From Candidatus Magasanikbacteria bacterium RIFOXYC2_FULL_42_28 (lineage in GTDB: Bacteria; Patescibacteriota; Patescibacteriia; Magasanikbacterales; GWA2-37-8): a stretch of 64,000 nucleotides of DNA. The DNA lies in contig MFQZ01000009.1 of the NCBI GenBank assembly GCA_001784435.1, positions 11,324 to 75,323 on the forward strand. Direction: 5' to 3'. The number at the start of each line of letters is the position of its first letter. Position 1 is the stretch's first letter. Below the pieces are notes generated by a model, which was not told the DNA's origin, ran no database searches, and saw only the letters and a program-made list of their open reading frames with translations. Position numbers and translations under genes: made by a program. Positions 4,122-62,407 of this stretch are shown here, piece by piece.

Positions 4122-5108
4122 TTAATCTTTTTTTGCTTCTGATTCAGATAGTTTTTCCCGCGCCCCTACTGCGTCAAATACCGGTTTTACATCCGGATCA
4201 TCTAAATCCATCCCTTCAATTTTACTGCGCACGATGGCGTTCCAAACATCAGTCTCACTCATTTTTAAATATTGGGCCATACCAACAATTACTTCATCCA
4301 AAAATTTTCTTTCCTTTTTATAACCATCATTAACCTCCAAAATATCCAGAACATCCTTAACCGTTTGGGGAGCATATGTTTCCCCATGGCAACGCAATAA
4401 ATACTTTTTCATTATGTCCCTAGTCAATCGTTCAGTAACAGCCTCATCAAACAATCTAAACCTCGAACTTGAAGAGCCCTGAGTTCTATCGTGTTCTGAA
4501 TAACCCCCTCTTGATTTACCCAAACGCACCGGCACCATACCATCTAACATATGTTCTATCACCCAAGCCGCCGCTCTTTTAACTATTGAATCAATCTTTT
4601 GTTCTTCTAAGAGATTATATGAAATAGCGTGAACTTTTTCGTGAATCATTGTATGTAAAACATTAGCAAACATCAAATTCTCATCAACAATCAAATGTCC
4701 TTTTGTTTTTTGCTTTTGACCGCCCTGAATCCAGGCCTTCGCAACCAAAAGCTTGGCATCCAAAAAAATTTTATTAGCGTGAGGGGAATAAAATCCATCA
4801 AAAGCGCTCCCACTTTCTTCCAGCTTTTTAAAATCTTCCACTACAACTTCGGCTTCGTTAAAATTTAATTTCTCTGGACTAACACCACTTTTCGCGCCAA
4901 TTTCTTCAAAAATATTTTGCAGTTCAACCATATTAACTCGTGACAAAAATTCCTCAACCGCTTTTGACCACACCTCAAATGAGCTCCTGTCTGATTTTTC
5001 AGTAAATAATCTTTCACGAACCGGCTCCTCTGCTTGGTCAAGCAAAGTTTGAAATCTTTCCGGTTGCATTGGCCGGCCACGAAAATCAATTATCTCTCTC
5101 GGACTCAT
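4122..5108 (-). CDS. Hypothetical protein with an HExxH zinc-metallopeptidase motif
   Basis: 328-aa ORF containing HTMIHEKVHAISYN. It ends 8 nt upstream of the AAA+ gene on the same strand. Confidence 0.45.
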   Translation of the reverse strand: MSPREIIDFRGRPMQPERFQTLLDQAEEPVRERLFTEKSDRSSFEVWSKAVEEFLSRVNMVELQNIFEEIGAKSGVSPEKLNFNEAEVVVEDFKKLEESGSAFDGFYSPHANKIFLDAKLLVAKAWIQGGQKQKTKGHLIVDENLMFANVLHTMIHEKVHAISYNLLEEQKIDSIVKRAAAWVIEHMLDGMVPVRLGKSRGGYSEHDRTQGSSSSRFRLFDEAVTERLTRDIMKKYLLRCHGETYAPQTVKDVLDILEVNDGYKKERKFLDEVIVGMAQYLKMSETDVWNAIVRSKIEGMDLDDPDVKPVFDAVGAREKLSESEAKKD

Positions 5109-5189
5109 AAATATAATAAATCAAAACAACATCACTATAATACCATATCTTGCCTTTTTCCACAAAATATGGTAAATTTACCGCAAAAT

Positions 5190-6440
5190 ATGCCATTTTT
5201 TAATTTACAACACACCGACAACCGCGCCCGCGCCGGCGTTCTCCATACTGCTCATGGCGATATTGCAACGCCTTGCTTTATGCCCGTCGGCACCCAAGCC
5301 ACTGTTAAAACTTTGGATTCTTTGGATTTGGAAAATTTAAACGCGCCAATAATTTTAGGAAATACTTACCACTTGCATTTGCGTCCGGGCGAAGATTTGA
5401 TTGACACGGCCGGTGGATTACATAAATTTATGAATTGGAAACGACCGATTTTGACTGACTCGGGTGGATTTCAAGTTTTTTCACTTGGTCTACAAAAGGA
5501 CACCAAATTGTCATTTCGAACCGAGCGTAGCGAGCGTGAGAAATCTCCATCCGGTAAACAATACAATAATGGAGATCCCTCGCTTGACGCTCGGGATGAC
5601 AGCAAGAACGGCAACGAAAAACTCGTAAAAATCGACGACGACGGCGTTACCTTCCGCTCGCACATTGACGGCTCTACCCATCGCTTTACCCCCGAATCCG
5701 CCATTGAAACTCAACACAAACTCGGCGCCGATATAATCATGGCTTTTGACGAATGCACACCTGATCGGGCTTCGCCTGGCTACGCCCGACAAGCCATGGA
5801 ACGAACACATCTTTGGGCCGAGCGCTGCATTACTGAACACAAAAAAGAAACTAACCGCCACGGCTACCCCCAATTTTTATTTGGCATAATCCAAGGCGCC
5901 AACCATCAGGACTTACGCGAAGAATCTGCGAAATTTATTTGCGCGCAAGATTTTGACGGCATCGCGGTCGGCGGTGAATCTATCGGCTACAATATGGAAG
6001 CCACTGACGAAATTTTAAAATGGGTGCACCCGTATTTACCAACTAATAAACCACATTACGCAATGGGGATGGGGCTTGATCCAGCTGATTTACTCGTCGC
6101 GGTTGAAAATGGCATTGATATGTTTGATTGCGTCGCGCCGACACGATTGGCTCGGCATGGAATGATATTTACAAAAACAAAAGATAAAAGTGGTAAACAT
6201 AGAATGAATATAAAAAACAGTAGTTTTGCTACTGATTTTAGTCCGATTGAGCTGGATTGCACTTGTCACACCTGCCAAAATTACACGCGCGCGTATATCC
6301 ATCATTTATTCGCGGCCGAGGAGATGACCGCCATGCGCCTGACATCCATTCACAATTTACATTTTATGGTAGATTTGATGAAACAAACACGCGAGGCAAT
6401 TTTAAATAATAATTTTGCGGAATTTAAGAAAAATTTCTAA
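5190..6440 (+). CDS. tgt: Queuine tRNA-ribosyltransferase with a ~30-aa repeat-derived insertion
   Basis: MPFFNLQHTDNRARAGVLHTAHGDIATPCFMPVGTQATVK, ILTDSGGFQVFSL, and a C-terminal zinc site CTCHTCQNYTRAYIHHLF. The start is chosen by N-terminal similarity to Tgt (M-x-F-x-L...GRAR). Confidence 0.85.
   Translation: MPFFNLQHTDNRARAGVLHTAHGDIATPCFMPVGTQATVKTLDSLDLENLNAPIILGNTYHLHLRPGEDLIDTAGGLHKFMNWKRPILTDSGGFQVFSLGLQKDTKLSFRTERSEREKSPSGKQYNNGDPSLDARDDSKNGNEKLVKIDDDGVTFRSHIDGSTHRFTPESAIETQHKLGADIIMAFDECTPDRASPGYARQAMERTHLWAERCITEHKKETNRHGYPQFLFGIIQGANHQDLREESAKFICAQDFDGIAVGGESIGYNMEATDEILKWVHPYLPTNKPHYAMGMGLDPADLLVAVENGIDMFDCVAPTRLARHGMIFTKTKDKSGKHRMNIKNSSFATDFSPIELDCTCHTCQNYTRAYIHHLFAAEEMTAMRLTSIHNLHFMVDLMKQTREAILNNNFAEFKKNF
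5508..5596 (+). mobile_element. RPE-like palindromic repeat (family 1), complete copy inserted in-frame in tgt
   Basis: The copy reads TTGTCATTTCGAACCGAGCGTAGCGAGCG...GAGAAATCTCCATCC...AATGGAGATCCCTCGCTTGACGCTCGGGATGACA. Both hairpin ends are present, and it translates as KLSFRTERSEREKSPSGKQYNNGDPSLDARDDS. Confidence 0.6.
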
Positions 6441-9204: not shown

Positions 9205-9304
9205 TTGTCATTCCGACAACGAAGGAGGAATCTCTATCCCGTTGGCTATTGCAGGCCAAATGGAGATCCCTCGTCGGATGCGAATCCTCACTCGGGATGA
9301 CAAA
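9205..9304 (+). mobile_element. RPE-like palindromic repeat (family 1), intergenic copy
   Basis: TTGTCATTCCGACAACGAAGGAGGAATCTCTATCCC...CAAATGGAGATCCCTCGTCGGATGCGAATCCTCACTCGGGATGACAA. Confidence 0.65.
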
Positions 9305-10870: not shown

Positions 10871-10969
10871 TTGTCATTTCGACGACGAAGGAGAAATCTC
10901 TATCCCAATCGATTACCAATGGAGATCCCTCGTCCCGACTAAGTCGGGAGTCCTCGCTCGGGATGACAA
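10871..10969 (+). mobile_element. RPE-like palindromic repeat (family 1), the fullest copy
   Basis: TTGTCATTTCGACGACGAAGGAGAAATCTCTATCCCAATCGATTACCAATGGAGATCCCTCGTCCCGACTAAGTCGGGAGTCCTCGCTCGGGATGACAA, 13 nt after the comM stop. Confidence 0.7.
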
Positions 10970-10971
10970 AA

Positions 10972-15712: not shown

Positions 15713-16828
15713 CTACTGCCGTATCGGCATCACAATATACAAATAACTCTCATCTTTCTCCGGCGCGAGTACGCACGGGCTGTCGGCGTTAATCATCTTC
15801 ATGTACACCCGCTCACCGCGGATGCCATTGAGGCCATCCAACAAATAGCGATGGTTTAAGTTGATATTATTTTCTTCACCCACAATATCCGCGCTAATTT
15901 GGGAACTATATTCGCCGGTTTGGGTGGACGATGACGCGAGCGCGACGCTCTCGCCGGCGAATTTAAATACTACCGCATTAACACCGGTCGTAGAAAACAA
16001 ACTGGCGGCTTTTATTTCTTTGGTTAACTGCGCCAAAGACATACCAGCAGTAGTTTTAAAATCCTTGGGAATAATTTGAGTGTAATCCGGATATTTTCCG
16101 TCCACTAAACGCGACACTAATTGCGCGCCATCGTAATGAATCACTAATTGATTTTCATTAATTAAAATCCGCACGTTTTTTTCCGCTTCTGAGCTGGCCG
16201 CGGATAATAGATGATGGATTTCTTGCGCCGTGCGTCCAGGCACAATTGCTGAAAATGATTCTTCGCCTTGGGTTAATTTAATTTTTTTCTCGGCCAAGCG
16301 ATAACTGTCGGTGGAGGCCATGACAAGCCCTTTAAAACCTTCGGGGTTAAATGAGAAAAACACCCCGGATAATTCCGGACGAATATCGTTGCGCGCGAGC
16401 GCGGGGGTAACTTGCGCCAAACCATTTTTAAAATCTTCGGCTGACACGGTAAAACCATGGCCGTCTTTACTTTGAGGAACAACCGGGAAATCATCGGCCG
16501 GCGAACCCTTAATTTTGGTAGTGGCGCGATCACAGGTTACCACCAGTTCATTATTTACCAACTCCAAATCCACTTTTTCACCCGACAAGAAATTTACAAA
16601 ATCGGCCAATGTTCGTGCCGGCACGGTAAACTGACCTGGCTCATCCACCTTGGCTCGCAAATACGCCACCATTGCCAATTCTAAATTAGTGGCGACTATT
16701 TCCACGGTTTGGGTGTCGGCTTTAATTAAAACATTTCCCAAAATCGGCAGATTAATATTTTTTCCCGCTATCCCACCCACGAGAGATAACACGAGCGCTA
16801 AATTGTCCTTGGTGCATGATAATTTCAT
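15713..16828 (-). CDS. dnaN: DNA polymerase III beta sliding clamp
   Basis: 371 aa in three-domain beta-clamp layout. The N-terminus MKLSCTKDNLALVLSLVGGIAGKNINLPILGNVLIKA is typical. Confidence 0.9.
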   Translation of the reverse strand: MKLSCTKDNLALVLSLVGGIAGKNINLPILGNVLIKADTQTVEIVATNLELAMVAYLRAKVDEPGQFTVPARTLADFVNFLSGEKVDLELVNNELVVTCDRATTKIKGSPADDFPVVPQSKDGHGFTVSAEDFKNGLAQVTPALARNDIRPELSGVFFSFNPEGFKGLVMASTDSYRLAEKKIKLTQGEESFSAIVPGRTAQEIHHLLSAASSEAEKNVRILINENQLVIHYDGAQLVSRLVDGKYPDYTQIIPKDFKTTAGMSLAQLTKEIKAASLFSTTGVNAVVFKFAGESVALASSSTQTGEYSSQISADIVGEENNINLNHRYLLDGLNGIRGERVYMKMINADSPCVLAPEKDESYLYIVMPIRQ

Positions 16829-16832
16829 ATAA

Positions 16833-17088
16833 TTTATTTATTTTTTGGTAGTGTATTGGTTTATTATATCTAATTAATAGTAATAATAAGGGTGGGGATA
16901 GTGGGGATAATTTCGTTTTTTATTTTATCTTAGCCAATTTAGGAGTGGATAATTTTTTTTATTTTTTAATAACTATGATGTGAGTTTGGGGATAACTATT
17001 TGGGTTTGTTTATTTTAAAAATTTGGTGGGGATAGAGGTGTGAGGGTGGGGATAAACTATACGAGTTATCAACAAAGTTATACACAAT
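16833..17088. promoter_or_regulatory. oriC-like region: cluster of six or more DnaA boxes (TGGGGATAA / GTGGATAA) with an AT-rich unwinding stretch
   Basis: GGTGGGGATAGTGGGGATAA, AGTGGATAA, TTGGGGATAA and GGTGGGGATAG...GGTGGGGATAA lie between dnaN and dnaA. An AT-rich stretch is at 16905-16980. Confidence 0.6.
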
Positions 17089-18462
17089 CTAAACATTATT
17101 AATGTATAATTTTTGCTTAATTAAGTCAATCTCTTGCTTTAATTTAATATCATTTTCTACCTCTCTTTTGATTTTTTCATAAGCATGCATAGCGGTAGTG
17201 TGGTCGCGTCCGCCCAATTCGTCACCAATGGTGGGAAACGAGGTTTTTAATTCTTCGCGCAACATAAACATGACAATTTGGCGCGGGTTAGACAAGCGCT
17301 TTTCCCTATTTTTACTGGTAATTTCATCAAAATTCACATTATAAAACTCACAAACAGCATCAATTACTTGGCGAGGAGCCACCGCATGGCGCATGGAACC
17401 GACAGATAGGCCGGTTAAGAGTGTTTTGATTGATTCTTCGTTTGGTTCCAGGTGTTTTAGGTCGTGGTAAGCGATAATTTTGTTAAGCGCGCCTTCTAAT
17501 TCGCGGATATTGCTTTGGATGGACAGGGCGATTAATTTAATTAATTTTTCTTCTAAAGGAAAGTTTTTTTCAATGGTTTTTTTTCCTAAAATCGCTACGC
17601 GGGTTTCAAAATCAGGCGCCGCCACATCCACGATCATCCCCCACTCAAAACGTGATTTTAAACGGTCTTCCAAGGCCGGAATGGCTTTGGGTGGTCGGTC
17701 AGAAGTTAGGATTACTTGTTTGTTGGCTTGGTGCAGTTCATTAAAAGTGTGGAAAAATGATTCTTGGGTGCCGTCTTTGCCGGCGATAAACTGGATATCG
17801 TCAATTAACAGCGCGTCGGCGGTCCGATAATGATCTTGAAAATTTTTGGCCTCGCCCCCTTTCATTGACGAAATGTAATCATTGGTGAATTTTTCCGCGC
17901 TCACATAGACAATTTGATAATGGGGATTTTTTTTGATTATTTCATTGCCGATTGCTTGGAGCAGGTGGGTTTTGCCTAAACCAACGCCACCGTAGATGAA
18001 AAGCGGGTTGTAGGCCTCGCCCGGGCGATTAGAAACAGCTTGGGCGGCCGCAAACGCGAGCTCAGTGCCACGGCCGACCACAAAATTATCAAAACTATAT
18101 TTGGGATTAAGAGTAAAGCCACCGCTAGTTGGTGTGGTTGCCGGTTTGGTTACGGTCTCGGGTGGTATTTCGGTGTTGGGGGCGGGCGCGGCGCAGGCCT
18201 CGGCAATATTTTTGATGCTATCTATTTTGTATTCTAATTTTTTAATCGGTTTTTCTGTTACTCTTTCTAATGATTTGATAATATGATGATGATATTTTTT
18301 TTCAATCCAGGCCTGGCTGAATGTGCTCGGAACGCAAACCACTACCTGGCCTTCTTGCAGGGTGGTAATGCCGGTATTTTTAAACCAAGTGTTAAAATTG
18401 GCCTTGGAAACCATTAATTCCAGTTCGGCGAGGACGGCTTGCCAGATTTCAAGGTTATTCAT
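17089..18462 (-). CDS. dnaA: Chromosomal replication initiator DnaA
   Basis: GGVGLGKTHLLQAIGNE, the Walker B/sensor regions, and a C-terminal DNA-binding domain ending in the HTH. Confidence 0.95.
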   Translation of the reverse strand: MNNLEIWQAVLAELELMVSKANFNTWFKNTGITTLQEGQVVVCVPSTFSQAWIEKKYHHHIIKSLERVTEKPIKKLEYKIDSIKNIAEACAAPAPNTEIPPETVTKPATTPTSGGFTLNPKYSFDNFVVGRGTELAFAAAQAVSNRPGEAYNPLFIYGGVGLGKTHLLQAIGNEIIKKNPHYQIVYVSAEKFTNDYISSMKGGEAKNFQDHYRTADALLIDDIQFIAGKDGTQESFFHTFNELHQANKQVILTSDRPPKAIPALEDRLKSRFEWGMIVDVAAPDFETRVAILGKKTIEKNFPLEEKLIKLIALSIQSNIRELEGALNKIIAYHDLKHLEPNEESIKTLLTGLSVGSMRHAVAPRQVIDAVCEFYNVNFDEITSKNREKRLSNPRQIVMFMLREELKTSFPTIGDELGGRDHTTAMHAYEKIKREVENDIKLKQEIDLIKQKLYINNV

Positions 18463-18570
18463 AGAAAAATCATTTATAGTGTTCGTATTTTACCATGAAA
18501 ACAAAGTTATCCACAACCACGGATAATTCCGTTTTTTGGCTTAATTGGGGATAAGTTGGGGATAAGTGTT
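18463..18570. promoter_or_regulatory. Second DnaA-box cluster upstream of dnaA (TTATCCACA at 18507-18515, TGGGGATAA x2 at 18546-18565)
   Basis: A perfect consensus box plus two variants. This is the typical dnaA autoregulatory/origin arrangement. Confidence 0.55.
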
Positions 18571-18617
18571 ATAATATCAAAATATAAATATCAAAAATCA
18601 AAATTCGACCGTTGGGC

Positions 18618-18646
18618 TTGACAAAACCACAAAAATGTGATATAAT
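18618..18646 (+). promoter_or_regulatory. sigma70 promoter (TTGACA-17-TATAAT) for rpmH-rnpA-yidD
   Basis: TTGACA at 18618-18623 and TATAAT at 18641-18646. Confidence 0.6.
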
Positions 18647-18677
18647 AAAGGGGTGATTATTAAAAATATTCAAAAAT

Positions 18678-18854
18678 ATGGTGAAACGTACATATCAGCC
18701 AAAGAAACGCAAACGTTCTAAATCCCATGGTTTTAGAAAACGTATGAAAACCAGCGCCGGTCGGGCGGTTTTGGCTCGTCGTCGTGCCAAAGGACGCAAA
18801 AAATTAACTGTTTCCGATGAAAAGAAAGGCAAATTGTTGCGTAAAAGCCGTTAA
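18678..18854 (+). CDS. rpmH: 50S ribosomal protein L34 (with a C-terminal extension)
   Basis: [45 protein letters not shown]..., 58 aa. It is not in the track because it is under 60 aa. Confidence 0.8.
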
Positions 18855-18934
18855 AATTACTAAAATTAGCGAAAAATCCGGTTTTATGCCGGATTTTGTT
18901 TTTGGATGGTGTTTTGTGTGGTATAATATAATAT

Positions 18935-19339
18935 ATGTTAACCGATCAATATCGTTTAAAAAAAGTGCGGGATTTTAATATGCTCATGGAGCGTGGACGC
19001 TGGGCAGGCGGGGCGCTTTTTACAGTTAAATGGCTTAAATTAGCGGACCCTGGCATCAGATTGCCAAAGGCAATCGGTGCAGGGCCAGAATTGAAAAAAT
19101 TTATAGAGCAATTGCGTTTTGCTTTTGTGGTGGGTTTGAAGGTGAGTAAAAAGGCGGTTGAGCGCAATCGCTTGAAACGTCAGATGCGGGAGGTTGTTAG
19201 ATTGATGATTAAGGATGGGCGAGTTAAAAGCGGGTTTTATGTGATGGTGGTAGCGAAGGGCGAGGCGCTGGGGAAAGAGTATGGTAAAATTGAGAAAGAA
19301 ATTGAGGGTTTATTAAAGAGGATCGGCGTGGCAAGTTAA
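18935..19339 (+). CDS. rnpA: Ribonuclease P protein component
   Basis: 134 aa, basic, located just after rpmH. The RNR-like motif KKAVERNRLKRQMRE is present. Confidence 0.75.
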   Translation: MLTDQYRLKKVRDFNMLMERGRWAGGALFTVKWLKLADPGIRLPKAIGAGPELKKFIEQLRFAFVVGLKVSKKAVERNRLKRQMREVVRLMIKDGRVKSGFYVMVVAKGEALGKEYGKIEKEIEGLLKRIGVAS

Positions 19340-19340
19340 T

Positions 19341-19452
19341 AATGTCAAATTTCCAATTTCCAATGTCAAATCAAATCCAAAGCTCAAATTACGAATTTGA
19401 CATTTTGATTTTGACATTGATTTGACATTGGAAATTTGGATTTTGAAATTAA
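19341..19452 (+). repeat. Family 2 long palindromic element
   Basis: AATGTCAAATTTCCAATTTCCAATGTCAAATCAAATCCAAAGCTCAAATTACGAATTTGACATTTTGATTTTGACATTGATTTGACATTGGAAATTTGGATTTTGAAATT. It starts 2 nt after the rnpA stop and ends 1 nt before the yidD ATG. Confidence 0.7.
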
Positions 19453-19453
19453 T

Positions 19454-19711
19454 ATGCTTGTAAAGAAAATATTGCTGATTCCGCGCGTGGTAGTTTTATT
19501 ATTTATTAGATTATATCAGAAAACAATATCTCCTGATCATGGCATTTTTAAAAATTTATTTCCACATGGGTATTGCCGGTTTTATCCTACCTGTTCTGAA
19601 TATGGTTATCAGGCGATAAAGAAAGGGGGGTTGGTGGTGGGTGGTTTAAAAACTATTTGGAGAATTTTGCGGTGTAATCCGTGGAATAAAGGCGGGGTGG
19701 ATTTGCCATAG
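19454..19711 (+). CDS. yidD: Membrane protein insertion efficiency factor YidD
   Basis: [39 protein letters not shown] is the YidD/haemolytic-domain signature. The ATG at 19454 is used because the track's start lies inside the repeat. Confidence 0.8.
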
Positions 19712-22035: not shown

Positions 22036-22253
22036 AAAATTTCCACGATTTTGTTTTTAGATTTTTCTCCGGAGATTATTTTAATTCGGCTTTTTGGGGT
22101 TTGGTATTCTTTGCTTAATAATTTAATCAGCGCCTCATTGGCCGCGTTATCTACCGGCGGGGCGGTTAATTTTACTTTAATGACGCCGTCGGCCATCGGG
22201 CCGATGATTTCGTTTTTACTGGAGCGGGGGATAACTTTTATTTTTAGTTTCAT
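22032..22253 (-). CDS. DUF167/YggU-family protein
   Basis: KIKVIPRSSKNEIIG...IKVKLTAPPVDNAANEALIKLLSKEYQTPKSRIKIISGEKSKNKIV. The start is at MKLKIKV, because the track's N-terminus comes from the adjacent repeat. Confidence 0.6.
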   Translation of the reverse strand: MKLKIKVIPRSSKNEIIGPMADGVIKVKLTAPPVDNAANEALIKLLSKEYQTPKSRIKIISGEKSKNKIVEIL

Positions 22254-22262
22254 ATTTTTTCG

Positions 22263-22305
22263 TTTGTCATTTGTCATCCCGAGCGCAGCCGAGGGATCCC
22301 TTAAA
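22263..22305 (+). mobile_element. Family 1 repeat, solo half-copy (TTGTCATCCCGAGCGCAGCCGAGGGATCCCTTAAAC)
   Basis: It matches the left arm of the 22610-22712 copy. Confidence 0.5.
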
Positions 22306-22591
22306 CCCATTCTGCGCTTAAATCTTTCCAATGCGGATTGATTTGTTTAATTAAAAATTCTTTTTTGTCTCGACGCCAACTCTTTAACTGTTTCTCTCGG
22401 GTTATCGCCGTGTTGATATCTTGATAGTGTTCATAAAAAACTAGTCTGCCAACATCATATTTTTTTGTAAATCCTTCAACTAATTTTTGTTTATGTTCAG
22501 AAAGTCGTTTTTCTAAATTATTTGTAACGCCGGTGTATAGCGTGCCACTATCACTTGCCAATATGTAAACATAATAATTGTGCTGTTTCAT
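22301..22591 (-). CDS. GIY-YIG nuclease-domain protein (UPF0213-like)
   Basis: YYVYILASDSGTLYTGVTNNLEKRLSEHK is the GIY-YIG core. The start is taken at MKQHNYYVYIL. Confidence 0.65.
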   Translation of the reverse strand: MKQHNYYVYILASDSGTLYTGVTNNLEKRLSEHKQKLVEGFTKKYDVGRLVFYEHYQDINTAITREKQLKSWRRDKKEFLIKQINPHWKDLSAEWV

Positions 22592-22609
22592 AGATTTGTA
22601 AATGTGATC

Positions 22610-22712
22610 GTCGTTTGTCATTCCGAGCGTAGCCGAGGAATCCCTTAAACTTATTATTGTACAAATACTATCTGTAAGGGATCCCTCCGCTCGCTAAGGC
22701 TCGGTCGGGATG
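22610..22712 (+). mobile_element. Family 1 repeat (variant subtype with both arms)
   Basis: TTGTCATTCCGAGCGTAGCCGAGGAATCCCTTAAAC...TAAGGGATCCCTCCGCTCGCTAAGGCTCGGTCGGGATGACAAG. Confidence 0.6.
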
Positions 22713-22720
22713 ACAAGCGA

Positions 22721-23554
22721 TTAACCCCGTATTTTTTTCAAAATTGCCAGATCTTTTTCAACTTTATCATGATCAGTTTCTAAATAGAAATTAATATTTT
22801 GTAATCGTTTGTCAGTTAATAATGCTTGAAATCCCTTCAATCCAATTAGGCCGTCACCGATATGTTCGTGGCGATCTTTTTTCGCGCCGAGTTCTACTTT
22901 AGAATCATTGCAGTGCGCCATTTTTAATTTATCAAGACCGATTATTTTATCAAATTTTTTGAGAGTGGTGTCAACTGTTTCGGGTGTGCGGCAATCATAA
23001 CCGGAGGCAAACGCGTGTTCGGTATCGTAACACACACCGATGTCATATTTTTTTAATTTAGGGTGATAAATAATTTCCGCGATTTCTTCAAAAGTGTCGC
23101 CGATAATTTCGCCGGCGCCGGCGGCAATTTCAATTAAAAATTGCGTTTCGCCTTTGTATCCTTTTAACATTTCCGCCAAGTCCTGTGCCACTTGCGCCAA
23201 TCCCAAATCGTGTCCCAAATCTTTGTAACTGCCGAGGTGCGCCATTAAATATTTGGCGCCCAGAAGCGACGCCCGTTCCAATTCTTCGCGCACAATTTTA
23301 ATAGAGCCAAATCTAATGCGATTATTAGCAGAGGCAAAATTGATAATATACGGCGCGTGCACCGCCCATTCTTTTTGATTAAATGCTTTACACCGATCTT
23401 GAAATTCTTTACCAATACTCTCAGTTATTGGTGGGGTAAATCCGCCCTGAGGCGAGCGTGTAAACATTTGAAAAACTTCGCAACCTAAATTAGCCGCGTT
23501 TTGCGGGGCGTTGGTAATCGCGCCGGCAATGGAAACGTGTGCGCCAAAAAGCAT
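22721..23554 (-). CDS. nfo: Endonuclease IV (AP endonuclease family 2)
   Basis: 277 aa xylose-isomerase-like TIM barrel. AVHAPYIINFAS, metal-binding His/Asp/Glu are spaced as in Nfo, and HCNDSK is present. Confidence 0.8.
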   Translation of the reverse strand: MLFGAHVSIAGAITNAPQNAANLGCEVFQMFTRSPQGGFTPPITESIGKEFQDRCKAFNQKEWAVHAPYIINFASANNRIRFGSIKIVREELERASLLGAKYLMAHLGSYKDLGHDLGLAQVAQDLAEMLKGYKGETQFLIEIAAGAGEIIGDTFEEIAEIIYHPKLKKYDIGVCYDTEHAFASGYDCRTPETVDTTLKKFDKIIGLDKLKMAHCNDSKVELGAKKDRHEHIGDGLIGLKGFQALLTDKRLQNINFYLETDHDKVEKDLAILKKIRG

Positions 23555-36187: not shown

Positions 36188-38905
36188 ATGAAGAAACTTG
36201 TTATTATAGATGGGAACGCAATAATACATAGGGCCTATCACGCCATTCCGCCCATGAACACCAAAAACGGGATGATGGTCAATGCGGTGTATGGGTTTAC
36301 TTCCATGTTGTTGCGCGTTTGGAAAGATTTAAAGCCGACACATATTGCCGTCACTTTTGATATGCGCGGTCCGACTTTTCGGCATGAAAAATTTAAGGAA
36401 TACAAAGCCACGCGCGTGAAAGCGGATCAGGAATTGTATGATCAGATTCCTTTGGTGCACAATGTTGTTCGTGCTTTTAATATTCCGATTTATGAAAAGG
36501 CCGGTTATGAGGCCGACGATGTGATTGGCACGGTCGCTCGCATGGTAGAAAATAAAAAAGAGGTTGAGACGTATATTGTGACGGGTGATAAAGATACTCT
36601 ACAGTTGATTGAGCCAGGGGTGAAAGTTTTTACCTTGCGTAAAGGGATGAGTGATACGGTAATTTATGATGCCGAGGGTGTAAAAGAAAAATTTGGATTT
36701 TTACCGGATAAAATGGTGGATTACAAAGCGCTGGCCGGTGATGCGTCGGATAATATTCCGGGGGTGCCGGGGGTGGGAGAGAAGACGGCGACAGATTTGA
36801 TTCAGAAGTTTGGGGGGATTGATGAGATTTATGATAATATCAAAAATCAAAAATCAAATATCAAAGATATTAAGGCGGGTGTCTTGAAAAAATTGATTGA
36901 CGGCGAAGAGTCGGCGCGGATGAGTTTTGAACTTGCGACGATTGACCGCAATGTTCCGGGGGTGGATTTTAAGTTGGAAGATTGCGTGGCAAAAGAATTT
37001 GACCGCGAGAAAGTGGTTAAGATTTTTCAGGAGTTGGAGTTTATGTCGTTGTTGAAGCGTTTACCCGGCGAAGCATTAGCGAAGACGGGGTTGCCGGGGG
37101 CGAGTGGGGATGGAGATCCCTCGCTTGACACTCGGGATGACAAACAAAAAAAAGTCCGAGCGAAATTTAAAGTTGATGAAATAAAGACAAAAGATGAAGT
37201 TGAGAAATTAGTTGAGCAGATTCGTAAAACAAAATCATTTGCCTGCCGTGAGGCCACGGCTGGACGTGAAGTTTATAATTCAGAATTGTTTGGTGTGGCG
37301 GTTATTGTTTCTGGCGCCGGATATTTTATTAGTGAAAAATTATTAAAAGAATTTTTGCCGGTATTTGAATTTTCGGATTGTGAATTCGTTGGTCATGATT
37401 TAAAACAGTTAATCAAAATTTTAAAACTGCAGGGCGTGGAAATAAAAAATAAATTGTTTGACACGATGATCGCGTCGTATCTGCTGGAACCGGGCAGTCG
37501 GGCGCATGACAGCGCCAGTATTGTTTTGAAAGTGTTAGGCCAAGAATTACCAGCCGGTGCCGGGCAGAATAGTTTGTTTGGGGCGGATATGCTTGCGGTA
37601 ACACAAGAATTATACCAACTATCTTTGGCGGCCGAAAAATTAAAAAAAGAATTAGTCGCGATTAGCGATTTTGGTTTAATGGAAAAAATAGAGATGCCAC
37701 TTTTGCCGGTCCTCGCGCAAATGGAATTAAACGGTATTGCCGTGGATTTAAAATTACTACAAAAATTATCCGAACAAGTGACGGCGGAAATTAAAACCGT
37801 GAGCGCGACTATTTTTAAATTGAGTGGAACGGAATTTAATATCTCGTCGCCGACACAATTGCGCGAAGTGCTGTTTGAAAAAATGGAAATTCCAGTGGAA
37901 GGAATTAAAAAAGGCAAAACCGGTTTGTCCACTTCTGCCGAACAGTTAGAAAAATTGCGCGGTCAACACCTAATCATTGAACATATTGAAAATTATCGCG
38001 AATTGGAAAAATTGCGCAATACCTATATTGATGTTTTGCCGACTTTGATAAATAAAAAGACCGGTCGGATTCACACCACTTTTAATCAGGCGGTCGCGGC
38101 GACTGGGCGCCTGTCATCGTCTGATCCAAATTTACAAAATATTCCCATTCGCACGGAGTTGGGGCGCAAGATCCGCAAGGCCTTTGTGGCCGAAGATGGC
38201 AATGTGCTTATTTCCGCCGATTATTCGCAAATTGAATTGCGCGTGGTGGCATCACTCGCCGAGGATAAAAAAATGATGGAAATTTTTGAGGCTGGTTTGG
38301 ATATTCACGCGGCGACAGCAGCGGCGATAAATCATGTGGATTTAAAAGATGTTACCAAGGACATGCGTCGCGCGGCCAAGGAAGTAAATTTTGGCGTGTT
38401 GTATGGCATGGGCGCATATGGCTTGGCTTGGCGGGCCGATATTCCCCAGTGGCAAGCCAAAGATTTTATTGATAAATATTTTAGTGAATTTAGTGGTGTG
38501 AAAAAATATTTAGACGCGACTTTGGAATTTACCAAAAAAGAGGGATACTGCGAAACACTGTTTGGTCGGCGCCGGTATATTCCGGAATTAAACGCCAGCA
38601 ACCACCAATTGCGGATGGCCGGCGAACGGATGGCGATTAATCATCCGATTCAGGGGACGGCCGCGGATTTGATTAAGATGGCGATGATAGAAATATCAAA
38701 ATGTAAATATCAAAATGAAAAATTATTGAGCGACGATGTGCGAATGATATTACAAGTGCACGACGAATTGGTGTTTGAAGTAAAAAAAGAATTGGCTGAT
38801 GAAGTCGGTAAAAAGGTAAAAGAAATTATGGAGGGTGTGGCCAAATTGCGCGTGCCGATTGTGGTGGAGGTGAATGTTTCTAAAAGTTGGGGGGAGATGA
38901 AATAA
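36188..38905 (+). CDS. polA: DNA polymerase I (5'-3' exonuclease, 3'-5' exo-like and polymerase domains)
   Basis: 905 aa. The polymerase motifs are RRAAKEVNFGVLYGM (motif B) and QVHDELVFEV (motif C). The N-terminal FEN-like domain is present. Confidence 0.9.
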   Translation: MKKLVIIDGNAIIHRAYHAIPPMNTKNGMMVNAVYGFTSMLLRVWKDLKPTHIAVTFDMRGPTFRHEKFKEYKATRVKADQELYDQIPLVHNVVRAFNIPIYEKAGYEADDVIGTVARMVENKKEVETYIVTGDKDTLQLIEPGVKVFTLRKGMSDTVIYDAEGVKEKFGFLPDKMVDYKALAGDASDNIPGVPGVGEKTATDLIQKFGGIDEIYDNIKNQKSNIKDIKAGVLKKLIDGEESARMSFELATIDRNVPGVDFKLEDCVAKEFDREKVVKIFQELEFMSLLKRLPGEALAKTGLPGASGDGDPSLDTRDDKQKKVRAKFKVDEIKTKDEVEKLVEQIRKTKSFACREATAGREVYNSELFGVAVIVSGAGYFISEKLLKEFLPVFEFSDCEFVGHDLKQLIKILKLQGVEIKNKLFDTMIASYLLEPGSRAHDSASIVLKVLGQELPAGAGQNSLFGADMLAVTQELYQLSLAAEKLKKELVAISDFGLMEKIEMPLLPVLAQMELNGIAVDLKLLQKLSEQVTAEIKTVSATIFKLSGTEFNISSPTQLREVLFEKMEIPVEGIKKGKTGLSTSAEQLEKLRGQHLIIEHIENYRELEKLRNTYIDVLPTLINKKTGRIHTTFNQAVAATGRLSSSDPNLQNIPIRTELGRKIRKAFVAEDGNVLISADYSQIELRVVASLAEDKKMMEIFEAGLDIHAATAAAINHVDLKDVTKDMRRAAKEVNFGVLYGMGAYGLAWRADIPQWQAKDFIDKYFSEFSGVKKYLDATLEFTKKEGYCETLFGRRRYIPELNASNHQLRMAGERMAINHPIQGTAADLIKMAMIEISKCKYQNEKLLSDDVRMILQVHDELVFEVKKELADEVGKKVKEIMEGVAKLRVPIVVEVNVSKSWGEMK
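37109..37144 (+). mobile_element. Family 1 repeat half-copy embedded in-frame in polA
   Basis: ATGGAGATCCCTCGCTTGACACTCGGGATGACAA translates as GDGDPSLDTRDDK, in the linker between the 5'-exo and 3'-exo-like domains. Confidence 0.55.
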
Positions 38906-50539: not shown

Positions 50540-51418
50540 ATGGTCATGAAAAAAATTTTCTTAATTATTTTACTGGGGATTTTGGCACCGACTTTGGGGG
50601 CGCGCGCCTTTTCTTTAAGTCCATTGAAATATATTTTTTCTGTGGAACGTGGTGAAAGCACGGTGATTACAGTAACTCTAAATAATTATGAATCCGGGGT
50701 GATTGCCTTGGAGCCGGCGGTGGTGGGGATGAAAACCGACAAAGCCGGTCGGCCGGTTTATGATAGCACAGCCGAGGTAATTGGTTGGGTAAAGTCGGAT
50801 TGGAATTTTATAAATTTAAAAGAAGGCCAAGGCCAAAAAGTTCATTTTTTAGTTACCGTTCCAGCTGGCGCGTATCCGGGTGATTATTATTTAGGTGTCG
50901 GCGCGAAACGCGTTGCCGGTGTCGGCGCGGTAAGTATCGGTGAGCAACTTTTGACAGTAGTGAATTTGAAAGTGGCTGGAACTGCGCGCGAGGATTTGGT
51001 GGTGAAAAAATTTGAAGTTAGTGGAAAATTTTTTGAAAAAAATAAAAAATTTAATTTGGAAATTGAAAATAAAGGCAATGTGGAAATGCCGATAAGCGCG
51101 GTTTTAAAAATAAGCGATTGGCGTGGGCGGATAATTTTGGAACAGCCGGTTGCGGTGGGAAATAAAATTTTGCCATTAGCATCGCGAGTAGCATCAACCG
51201 ATTTTGTCATTGCGAGGAGCGAAGCGACGCGGCAATCTATCGTGCCGGGTTTGTATCAAGTGGATTTAACAGTTGATTACGGTTTGACTAAACAAAAAAT
51301 TACCGCGGTGGAAAATTTTTGGTATGTGCCAACTTGGACGTTGGGTGTGTTGGTGGGGGTGATTATATTGGTGGGATTAATTATTTTTATTAAAAATAGG
51401 AAAAATTTTGGGTATTAA
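50540..51418 (+). CDS. DUF916/DUF3324-like cell-surface protein with a C-terminal TM anchor
   Basis: A signal peptide is followed by FSLSPLKYIFSVERGESTVITVTLNNYESGVIALEPAV (a DUF916-like start). The C-terminal TM ends in the basic tail KNRKNFGY. Confidence 0.4.
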   Translation: MVMKKIFLIILLGILAPTLGARAFSLSPLKYIFSVERGESTVITVTLNNYESGVIALEPAVVGMKTDKAGRPVYDSTAEVIGWVKSDWNFINLKEGQGQKVHFLVTVPAGAYPGDYYLGVGAKRVAGVGAVSIGEQLLTVVNLKVAGTAREDLVVKKFEVSGKFFEKNKKFNLEIENKGNVEMPISAVLKISDWRGRIILEQPVAVGNKILPLASRVASTDFVIARSEATRQSIVPGLYQVDLTVDYGLTKQKITAVENFWYVPTWTLGVLVGVIILVGLIIFIKNRKNFGY

Positions 51419-61255: not shown

Positions 61256-62407
61256 ATGTCTTTTTCCATCGGGATTGTCGGATTGCCAAATGTCGGTAAA
61301 TCAACTTTATTTAATGCTTTGACGCGCAGTAAGCAAGCGGACGCTGCCAATTATCCTTTTTGCACTATTGATCCGAATGTGGGCGTAGTCGCGGTTCCGG
61401 ATGAGCGGTTAGCAAAGTTATCCGAAATTTCTAAATCAAAAAAAATTATCCCAACGGTGATTGAATTTGTGGATATTGCCGGTTTGGTAAAAGGCGCGAG
61501 CGAAGGCGAGGGTTTGGGTAATAAATTTTTATCACATATTCGCGAAGTGGACGCCATCGCGCAAGTAGTGCGCGCGTTTTCGGATAGTAATGTTATTCAT
61601 GTGAATAATAAAGTGGACCCAAAGAATGATAGCGAGGTGATTAATTTAGAATTGGCGTTGGCGGATTTACAAGTTGTTACCAAAAGATTAAGCACTGCCA
61701 AAAAAGATACCAAAGGTTCGGTGGCAAAAGACAAAGAAAAAGAAATTGAATTATTGACAAAAATTAATGCCCAGCTCGAGGCCGGCAAACCGGCGCGCGC
61801 GTTAGAATACAATGATGATGAAAAAATAATTTTAAAAAAATTACAGCTGTTGACAGCCAAACCGATGTTGTATGTGGTGAATACTGACGAAGGGGGCGGA
61901 ATTTCACCAATTGTTACTCCGACGACGAAGGAGGAATCTCTATCCCAATTGATTGCCAATGGAGATCCCTCGTCCCGACTAAGTCGGGAGTCCTCGCTCG
62001 GGATGACAACGCAAATAAACGTTTGTGCCAAGTTGGAAGCGGAATTGGCAGATTTGAGTGTGGAGGAAGCCAAAGAATATTTAAAAACTGCTGGCATTAC
62101 CGAAACCGGTTTGGATAAATTAGTTGTCGCCAGTTACAAATTATTGGATTTAATAACTTTTCTAACTTCGGGCGAACCGGAAACGCGCGCTTGGACGGTA
62201 AAAAATGGCGCGAGGGCCCCGGAAGCGGCCGGAGTCATTCACACGGATTTTATCAAAGGTTTTATTAAAGCCGATGTTTGTGACTGGCAAGATTTTGTTA
62301 CGCACCACGGTTGGTCAAAAATAAAAGAAACCGGAAAACTCCGATTAGAGGGAAAAGATTATGTCGTGAGAGATGGAGATGTTGTGTATTTCCATGTTAG
62401 TACCTGA
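61256..62407 (+). CDS. ychF: Ribosome-binding ATPase YchF (Obg family) with a repeat-derived insertion
   Basis: IGIVGLPNVGKSTLFNALT, NYPFCTIDPN and the C-terminal TGS domain (VVRDGDVVYFH). It is 383 aa, against ~363 aa typical for YchF. Confidence 0.85.
   Translation: MSFSIGIVGLPNVGKSTLFNALTRSKQADAANYPFCTIDPNVGVVAVPDERLAKLSEISKSKKIIPTVIEFVDIAGLVKGASEGEGLGNKFLSHIREVDAIAQVVRAFSDSNVIHVNNKVDPKNDSEVINLELALADLQVVTKRLSTAKKDTKGSVAKDKEKEIELLTKINAQLEAGKPARALEYNDDEKIILKKLQLLTAKPMLYVVNTDEGGGISPIVTPTTKEESLSQLIANGDPSSRLSRESSLGMTTQINVCAKLEAELADLSVEEAKEYLKTAGITETGLDKLVVASYKLLDLITFLTSGEPETRAWTVKNGARAPEAAGVIHTDFIKGFIKADVCDWQDFVTHHGWSKIKETGKLRLEGKDYVVRDGDVVYFHVST
61911..62009 (+). mobile_element. Family 1 repeat, full copy inserted in-frame in ychF
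   Basis: TTGTTACTCCGACGACGAAGGAGGAATCTCTATCCCAATTGATTGCCAATGGAGATCCCTCGTCCCGACTAAGTCGGGAGTCCTCGCTCGGGATGACAA is 96% identical to the 10871 copy and translates as IVTPTTKEESLSQLIANGDPSSRLSRESSLGMT. Confidence 0.65.

Follow-up and report, generated by a model that had tools for sequence, protein, structure and literature searches.

A GIY-YIG nuclease gene of the Ssn family with short-stem hairpin repeat arms in a Candidatus Magasanikbacteria genome

The ssn gene and the arms around it

In the window, by which we mean the whole 64,000-nt stretch analysed here from Candidatus Magasanikbacteria bacterium RIFOXYC2_FULL_42_28, a member of the candidate phyla radiation (CPR), a short minus-strand gene referred to below as ssn encodes a 96-aa single-domain GIY-YIG nuclease and lies among three short, directional, hairpin-forming repeats (arms), between an AP endonuclease 2/Nfo-type gene (nfo) and a DUF167/YggU gene. 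From the sequence, we put the probability that ssn is an Ssn nuclease gene of the SsnA type accompanied by its cognate hairpin arms (Ssn-related motifs, SRMs) at about 0.85. The features of the locus, in window positions, are as follows (ORF, open reading frame).

22301..22591, minus strand: ssn, single-domain GIY-YIG nuclease gene (Ssn/SsnA-like), 96 aa from MKQHNYY; identified by ORF, Pfam and BLASTP
22273..22298 (extended copy 22263–22311), plus strand: SRM-like arm of type A, GTC-ATCCC-GAGCGCAGCCGA-GGGAT-C, just downstream of ssn and antisense to it; the 'solo half-copy' of the preliminary description of this DNA
22264..22277, plus strand: tandem duplication of the terminal heptamer TTGTCAT (TTGTCATTTGTCAT) at the outer end of the downstream arm; evident from the sequence itself
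22617..22642, plus strand: SRM-like arm of type A, GTC-ATTCC-GAGCGTAGCCGA-GGAAT-C, upstream of the ssn start (18 nt between) and antisense; direct repeat of 22273–22298
22680..22714, minus strand: SRM-like arm of type B, GTCATCCCGACCGAGCCTTAGCGAGCGGAGGGATC, sense-oriented and outermost, beside the nfo stop codon
22613..22716, no strand assigned: hairpin module of 104 nt, convergent type A (plus) and type B (minus) arms around a 37-nt spacer; the 'full variant copy' of the preliminary description
22257..22720, no strand assigned: whole inserted block of ~464 nt with three arms and ssn, ends TTGTCAT...ATGACAA, between the nfo stop (22721–22723) and the DUF167 start (22251–22253)

The 96-aa protein, which has the same sequence as P0001 of Candidatus Magasanikbacteria RIFOXYC2_FULL_42, matched Pfam GIY-YIG (PF01541) over residues 15–87 (E=4e-17), confirming the ORF and the nuclease domain first proposed for it; its sole other match was a sub-threshold, overlapping one to the related T5orf172, and no extra domain was found. 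The Ssn family consists of single-domain GIY-YIG proteins of ~94 aa (CDD cd10448, GIY-YIG_unchar_3; Chenal et al. 2025, Nat Commun 16:2388, PMC11893778), delimited in that study by BLASTP to Neisseria SsnA at E<1e-10 with at least 75% coverage. With the 94-aa Neisseria gonorrhoeae SsnA orthologue (locus L081, 1489–1773), recognised by its flanking NTS repeats and Y6/Y17/E64 and used as a proxy for N. meningitidis CAX49033.1, the window protein shared 52% identity over 85 aa (E=1e-28, 88% query coverage), inside these thresholds. It is also of the family's size and composition (~94 aa, under 150 aa, a single GIY-YIG domain), and GTC-palindrome-C directional hairpin repeats lie on both sides of its gene within 500 bp, which together show that it belongs to the family. 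Residues Y9/Y19/E66 aligned by BLASTP with Y6/Y17/E64 of the gonococcal orthologue, and this catalytic Tyr/Tyr/Glu set was invariant in 34 homologues, as were R29, H33 and N85. The gonococcal locus itself (NZ_CP119140.1, 1880787–1884041) comes from a 2.17-Mb chromosome that is listed in PLSDB as a plasmid and is almost unannotated, and its ssnA orthologue lies inside an NTS array (16 repeats over 3.2 kb).

Relationships to other GIY-YIG groups were more distant. The 'UPF0213-like' label given in the preliminary description was approximate: the solved UPF0213 proteins did match the 96-aa protein, at superfamily level (1ZG2, E=6e-6; 1YWL, E=3.5e-4), but far more weakly than SsnA. No specific family model was returned by an NCBIfam search of the protein, and the group I intron endonuclease model TIGR01453 reached 17.2 bits, against a cut-off of 56, over residues 8–38 only.

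The pattern GTCATYCCGAGCGNAGCCGAGGRATC (26 nt) occurred exactly twice in the 64 kb, at 22273–22298 and 22617–22642, both on the plus strand, and had no matches in 100 shuffles. The extended copies (22266–22311 and 22610–22655) were 87% identical over 46 nt, their differences including a compensatory pair (ATCCC/GGGAT in one, ATTCC/GGAAT in the other). Bracketing of the gene by two copies in the same orientation, as originally described, was thus borne out, with the refinement that the gene is on the minus strand, so that both bracketing arms are antisense to it, and that the third arm at 22680–22714 is sense-oriented. All the arms follow a common directional plan with a 5-bp stem (AYxyz / z'y'x'RT), namely GTC, A-Y-x-y-z, a loop, z'-y'-x'-R-T and C; the GTC 5' of the palindrome and the C right after it are present in all three arms at ssn. 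The loop of both gene-bracketing arms reads GA-GCGNAGC-(C)GA, in which we take GCGNAGC to be a GNA-triloop mini-hairpin between G/A mismatches, and as single-stranded DNA (ssDNA) the 22273–22298 arm was predicted to fold into a 5-bp stem with an inner G-C pair. The module at 22613–22716 is an imperfect inverted repeat (TTGTCAT...ATGACAA) with a predicted ssDNA fold of −26.5 kcal/mol (z=−6.8; none of 200 shuffles was as stable). Searches of Rfam, at gathering thresholds across the whole window and at E<=10 over 22200–22780, returned only tRNAs and chance matches; the arms are no RNA family described in Rfam. Literature searched for the arm sequence and for links between GIY-YIG proteins and small repeats yielded nothing relevant until PMC11893778.

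Read in gene orientation, the locus runs from the nfo stop through the sense type B arm, the 37-nt spacer, an antisense type A arm, 18 nt, ssn and a further antisense type A arm overlapping its stop (the TAA of ssn falls inside this downstream, left, arm) to the DUF167 start. Spurious read-throughs of the arms aside, the GIY-YIG gene is the only ORF of more than ~60 aa in the block, and there is no HUH/Y1 tyrosine transposase. Scans for promoters and terminators around ssn gave chance-level results only. The locus lies ~4 kb from dnaA and from the turn in GC skew; a replication origin was placed within the window from a dnaN-like ORF, dnaA (17089–18462, minus strand), the rpmH/rnpA/yidD region (window 15713–19711) and a change of GC-skew sign at ~12–16 kb.

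Arms beside ssn homologues in other phyla

The Ssn-like protein family is very large (at least 8000 matches at E<1e-5). A scan of one genome per species gave 594 relatives, and the best 80 loci (L001–L080), examined here, covered more than 15 phyla, among them Acidobacteriota, Chloroflexota, Clostridia, Ignavibacteriota, Bacteroidota, CPR groups, Planctomycetota, Cyanobacteriota, Proteobacteria and Nitrospina. When each gene's upstream 220 nt were aligned with its downstream 220 nt in reverse complement, 84% of 77 loci scored above the 95th percentile of shifted controls, and the flank inverted-repeat score reached 30 or more in 65% of the 77 loci versus 0.8% of controls. Arm density peaked at 9.5 per kb per locus, 50–100 nt outside the gene, over a background of 0.15–0.35, the positional enrichment beside homologues in unrelated phyla being 30- to 45-fold, and an arm was found within 250 nt in 72 of 73 complete loci. 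Arms were even translated within mis-called N- and C-terminal extensions of homologues, such as VIPTEPRGERRNP... and ...RDSSTALRFARNDK.

The association between gene and arms therefore holds across phyla, and the circumstance named beforehand as fatal to it, that homologues in relatives are never adjacent to such repeats, clearly does not obtain: homologues in more than 15 phyla nearly always have them alongside. The preliminary description had also entertained a passenger of a composite unit, and a related reading is plain coincidence, an unrelated small nuclease gene having come to lie between two copies of a repeat that is abundant enough (12 convincing arms in the 64 kb) to make this conceivable. 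The enrichment beside homologues in unrelated phyla and the 72 of 73 flanked loci speak against it, as does the biochemistry that ties the Ssn family to such repeats (PMC11893778), and we regard it as exceedingly improbable; the flank inverted-repeat alignment and the arm-density results refute the passenger or coincidence reading.

The commonest order in the complete loci was sense arm, gene, antisense arm, i.e. arm–gene–inverted arm (46 of 73), and the order seen in the window, with antisense arms either side of the gene, was a minority (5 of 73). This dominant order is one argument for an autonomous element resembling an insertion sequence (IS), a selfish arm–ssn–inverted arm transposon nicked or excised by its nuclease at the arm termini, of which gene-less arm pairs would be non-autonomous, MITE-like derivatives (MITE, miniature inverted-repeat transposable element). 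The spread over more than 15 phyla points the same way, as does the scarcity of genes relative to repeats: when metagenomes were scanned for exact copies of the type A arm, at least 119 stretches came back, an ssn homologue was present in 2 of the 80 repeat-bearing loci fetched, and none of the 54 arms with full context adjoined one. At the level of single loci, that genes almost always come with arms and arms rarely with genes fits a picture of many repeats and few genes. In the published survey, SRMs lay near 71% of ssn homologues, on both sides in 42%, and the ssn gene was present in 81% of genomes with more than 200 SRMs; the NTS-ssnA-NTS arrangement was noted there as IS-like and domestication was raised as a hypothesis, mobility not being shown (PMC11893778).

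Beside full arms in several phyla, truncated arm termini were seen to be repeated in tandem as 'stutters' (TGTCATCCCGAGC... or ...GGGATGACAA, every 15–25 nt), at L062 (~4870–5000), L050 (~1483–1640) and L011 (~990–1120 and 1405–1560) and in the upstream regions of L060, L012 and L073. A minimal stutter, TTGTCAT twice, is found in the window at 22264–22277.

The inserted block and the arms elsewhere in the window

The window and the sister genome RIFOXYD2_FULL_41 (L084) both contain the block (22257–22720 in the window), and three further genomes (L089, L092 and L093) lack it. The empty site in L089 reads nfo TAA-AAT-ATG DUF167, with no arm or hairpin module anywhere in 2 kb, and the Nfo of that genome is no more distant from that of the window than the sister genome's is (91% protein identity, 82.7% DNA identity); in L092 and L093, nfo and DUF167 overlap. 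This shows a gain or loss of ssn together with its arms as one unit, although the comparison of filled and empty sites does not tell what moved the block. The block junctions lie 6–9 nt outside the outermost GTC on each side, a position compatible with the family's cutting position. That the block, with its TTGTCAT...ATGACAA ends, is either there or missing as a whole adds to the case for an IS-like element, but the junctions show no target-site duplication. The empty site in L089 is awkward for another reading, a homing-type element in which gene-less hairpin modules are the target 'alleles', cut by the nuclease, into which the gene is copied by repair, since no such module is there.

In the sister genome the Ssn protein is 91% identical to that of the window and the gene order is the same (TrmB, nfo, ssn, DUF167 and on to dnaA). 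The two loci are syntenic at ~80% nucleotide identity, with ssn (85%) diverged about as much as, or slightly less than, its neighbours, which makes movement of the unit rare at best; a homologue 75% identical in protein is found in a different gene context with the canonical arm–gene–arm order, as an IS-like element might be. The arms, by comparison, changed type, number and orientation between the window (22257–22720) and the sister genome while the genes stayed put. In the sister genome (L084, 790–1340), a type B hairpin module is followed by a sense type A arm immediately ahead of the gene, and an antisense type B arm comes after the gene; the type B arm at 22680–22714 is kept there. Within each genome, the two antisense bracketing arms are closer to one another (87% identical in the window; 1 mismatch over 46 nt for the sister) than to the arms at the corresponding positions of the other genome, which looks, as far as the sequences go, like in-place conversion or replacement, with gene conversion, re-insertion and inversion as candidates. 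The swapping of arm sequences at orthologous positions between lineages in this conversion-like manner counts for the homing reading too, as does a gene sitting between arms that elsewhere are 20–40 nt apart.

In L090 (1974–2120), whose nfo is 92.6% identical to that of the sister genome, only the hairpin module is kept after nfo, followed exactly at the arm's outer end by YbaB on the opposite strand; this junction may be a rearrangement at the arm or a chimeric artefact of a low-coverage (1.5x) assembly. The nfo-DUF167 spacer of L091 (3335–3455) holds an unrelated 120-nt palindrome (TTGTTATTTGTTGAGT...ACTCAACAAATAAC), possibly with a decayed arm inside. The nfo-DUF167 spot attracts differing palindromic elements.

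Elsewhere in the window, elements of the repeat family differ in sequence but share the one arm plan, mostly as convergent pairs with one arm per strand. Under a looser structural definition of an arm, 13 matches were observed compared with a chance background of ~2.8 per 64 kb, and across the window the triplets within arms covary (TTC/GAA, TCC/GGA, CCC/GGG, TGC/GCA). The gene-less pairs and single arms are listed below.

5508..5601, no strand assigned: gene-less arm pair, in frame inside tgt (ORF 5034–6440), aa ~158–190
9205..9304, no strand assigned: gene-less arm pair, intergenic
10871..10970, no strand assigned: gene-less arm pair, intergenic
61911..62010, no strand assigned: gene-less arm pair with degenerate left arm (GTTAC), in frame inside ychF (ORF 61256–62407), aa ~218–251
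37115..37141, minus strand: single arm in the polA ORF (36188–38905), in the linker between the 5'-3' exonuclease and 3'-5' exonuclease-like domains
51206..51237, plus strand: single arm with an ATTGC/GCAAT stem, close to the 3' end of ORF 50540–51418

Arm pairs in frame within tgt and ychF and a single arm within polA would suit a selfish IS-like element; they resemble parasitism rather than regulation, these being essential genes, and so count against a role as a domesticated host system. The reading frames of these long conserved-gene ORFs are unbroken by the arms, which add inserts of ~30 aa, e.g. LSFRTERSEREKSPSGKQYNNGDPSLDARDDS (Tgt) and TPTTKEESLSQLIANGDPSSRLSRESSLGMT (YchF). When 22 Tgt orthologues were compared, peptides encoded by arms (VIPS..., ...RND) were present in this loop in the majority of the longer proteins and missing from those of 383–387 aa; in many CPR orthologues the inserts occupy the same surface loop after GGFQVFSLG, with differing arm sequences, and two other positions hold additional inserts in some orthologues. 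At the spot occupied in the window (5430–5680), the tgt gene of another Magasanikbacteria genome (L213, 540–800) carries an arm pair that differs from the window's, with a left arm all but identical to the type A arm next to ssn in the window, and L214 (540–720) has none. Taken together, the tgt arms indicate, on sequence comparison, either a hot spot or in-place conversion. In the literature searched on Ssn repeats and CPR genomes, we found no description of in-frame arms within genes.

Interpretation and comparison with known systems

The pairing of nuclease and repeat is real and has already been published (PMC11893778); what is new is a member from the CPR with a diverged type of arm. In the published work, N. 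meningitidis SsnA binds the NTS repeat (CGTCATTCCCGCGMAVGCGGGAATCYRG) solely as ssDNA and cuts a few nt upstream, with no action on duplex DNA, RNA or the complementary strand, and homologues of three other species cut beside their own repeats. Mutagenesis showed the GTC 5' of the palindrome to be most important for cutting and the C right after the palindrome for binding (PMC11893778). By analogy with these characterised homologues, the window enzyme would bind a folded arm only in single-stranded DNA, such as is exposed in replication, repair or DNA uptake, and would then hydrolyse the same strand a few nt 5' of GTC, sparing duplex DNA, RNA and the complementary strand. Predicted cut sites at the locus lie on the plus strand 5' of 22273 and 5' of 22617, 344 nt apart and bracketing one arm and the gene, and on the minus strand 5' of 22714. 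Speculatively, such a segment might be copied into a cut beside a resident arm, giving a direct-repeat bracket like those in the window and the sister genome. We infer the cutting specificity from the homologues, and any role in the spread of arms or in limiting recombination of arm-bearing ssDNA likewise.

Several observations weigh against this interpretation. Changing the palindrome sequence while keeping the hairpin abolished SsnA activity (PMC11893778), and the Neisseria specificity is therefore not transferable to the present arm type. The published SRM string, HGTCWYN(0-2)YYVSBRHN(0-5)WNVSBRGN(0-2)RNCYNB, which by hand matches the NTS consensus, had no matches in the window and an any-side match in only 3 of the 73 related complete loci. 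The variety of stems in the window (TTC, TCC, CCC, TGC) would require an enzyme that tolerates variation or paralogues outside the window. Finally, single arms had weak predicted folds of −1.9 to −2.7 kcal/mol (z about 0), compared with −8.9 kcal/mol for the Neisseria NTS.

As to the last of these, a GNA-triloop with G/A mismatches goes uncredited in the standard energy model. Since that model gives single arms a z of about 0, the support for a small hairpin rests on covariation: of 200 GTCAT anchors lying no more than 300 nt from homologous genes, 58% were followed within 4–50 nt by their own complement plus C, compared with 1.9% when the triplet of another anchor was substituted. The published string is a search heuristic tuned to long-stem, NTS-like repeats of 8–9 bp and does not define the family, and the window arms, judged by their sequence against that string and NTS, are apparently a diverged, short-stem form of SRM that keeps the GTC and the C.

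The nicking activity for the repeats suggested in the preliminary description thus gains credence from the 52% identity to the gonococcal SsnA orthologue, while mobilisation is unproven; a GIY-YIG hydrolase, which forms no covalent intermediate, cannot rejoin DNA alone. For the same reason, strand transfer by an IS-like element would need host functions; moreover, the terminal arms here are on opposite strands, those of IS200/IS605 being both on one, and no transposition has been reported. The IS-like reading extends the interpretation as an Ssn nuclease with its cognate arms, in that it concerns the biological role and does not deny the biochemistry, and we hold it to be possible but doubtful. 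In its fullest form, the arm–ssn–inverted arm unit would be a mobile autonomous element of a new mechanistic class, with a GIY-YIG single-strand nickase as the mobilising enzyme and the gene-less pairs of the CPR acting as MITEs that turn over by conversion, mark rearrangement points and enter tgt, polA and ychF in frame; this proposal is tentative to the same degree.

The other candidate role is that of a domesticated host system, in which the nuclease cuts incoming or exposed ssDNA beside arms and so modulates recombination or transformation, the flanking arms being no more than the densest local cluster. Genes for DNA uptake of the competence type are found in CPR bacteria, which is in keeping with such a role, and the gene is intact, its catalytic residues are conserved and it occupies the same locus, slightly better conserved than its neighbours, in two lineages ~20% diverged in DNA. 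It is also the sole role shown by experiment for the family: in Neisseria the enzyme lowers transformation by NTS-bearing DNA, and an ssnA knockout of N. meningitidis had a 5-fold higher rate (PMC11893778). Against this stand the lack of any link between the locus and uptake genes within the window, and the near-universal arms around the gene and the unit-like insertion or deletion, neither of which such a role requires. We judge it no better than a tentative suggestion, on a par with the IS-like reading, with which it is compatible; the two are not exclusive. A homing-type element is improbable: the protein lacks the DNA-binding domain of GIY-YIG homing enzymes, its TIGR01453 score falls far short of the cut-off, and family members leave duplex DNA uncut (PMC11893778).

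The chief value of these results is in correct annotation, as the 'hypothetical' 96-aa protein and the spurious peptide-like ORFs over arms in CPR genomes can now be named. The range of the Ssn family is extended into the CPR, with short-stem arms that the published string overlooks, as it does those of most sampled relatives in more than 15 phyla; given string matches in 3 of 73 loci and arms in 72 of 73, the published counts of SRM-flanked genes and SRM-rich genomes are probably underestimates for short-stem lineages. A clean filled/empty pair, in which the block is bounded by arm termini, bears on whether such units are mobile, and the in-frame arm pairs in tgt and ychF and the single arm in polA matter for protein annotation and for how the repeats spread. 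Each new pair of Ssn and arm is also a candidate reagent for site-specific cutting of ssDNA.

Compared with the Ssn/NTS system of Neisseria, the window has the same kind of enzyme (~94–96 aa, single-domain GIY-YIG, 52% identical, the same catalytic Tyr/Tyr/Glu), a gene that has directional hairpin repeats on either side, with GTC(A/T) 5' and C 3', many dispersed repeat copies, often as convergent pairs, and an IS-like arm–gene–arm architecture. It differs in its host, Candidatus Magasanikbacteria, where the system is known from sequence alone; in its stem and loop (5 bp with an 11–22 nt loop here, 8–9 bp with a 3–4 nt loop in NTS); in its arm layout, the gene lying between two same-strand arms with a single inverted arm further out; and in its in-frame arm pairs inside genes, NTS being rarely intragenic (2%). 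CPR bacteria and intragenic repeats go unmentioned in PMC11893778.

With IS200/IS605 and REP/BIME-RAYT (Y1 HUH) it shares a small enzyme gene flanked by hairpin repeats that are recognised on ssDNA, gene-less repeats dispersed in high copy and an enzyme that is possibly domesticated, but the enzyme here is a GIY-YIG hydrolase and not an HUH tyrosine transesterase, with no covalent intermediate and no intrinsic rejoining, and the terminal hairpins are on opposite strands where IS200/IS605 has them on one. UPF0213/YhbQ proteins (PDB 1ZG2 and 1YWL) are likewise stand-alone GIY-YIG domains of ~100 aa, although their match (E=6e-6 and 3.5e-4) is far weaker than that to SsnA (E=1e-28), and we know of no repeat association for UPF0213. 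Homing endonucleases of the I-TevI type have in common with ssn the GIY-YIG catalytic domain and a selfish-looking gene distribution, whereas they possess a DNA-binding domain, cleave duplex DNA and are located in introns or phage genomes, and 96 aa leaves no room for a second domain. Rickettsia palindromic elements are short palindromic modules dispersed through a small genome, some in frame in conserved protein genes, and the window arms resemble them, a likeness offered only as a lead; the pairing of inverted repeats around a short spacer also recalls the neisserial dRS3/NIME mosaics.

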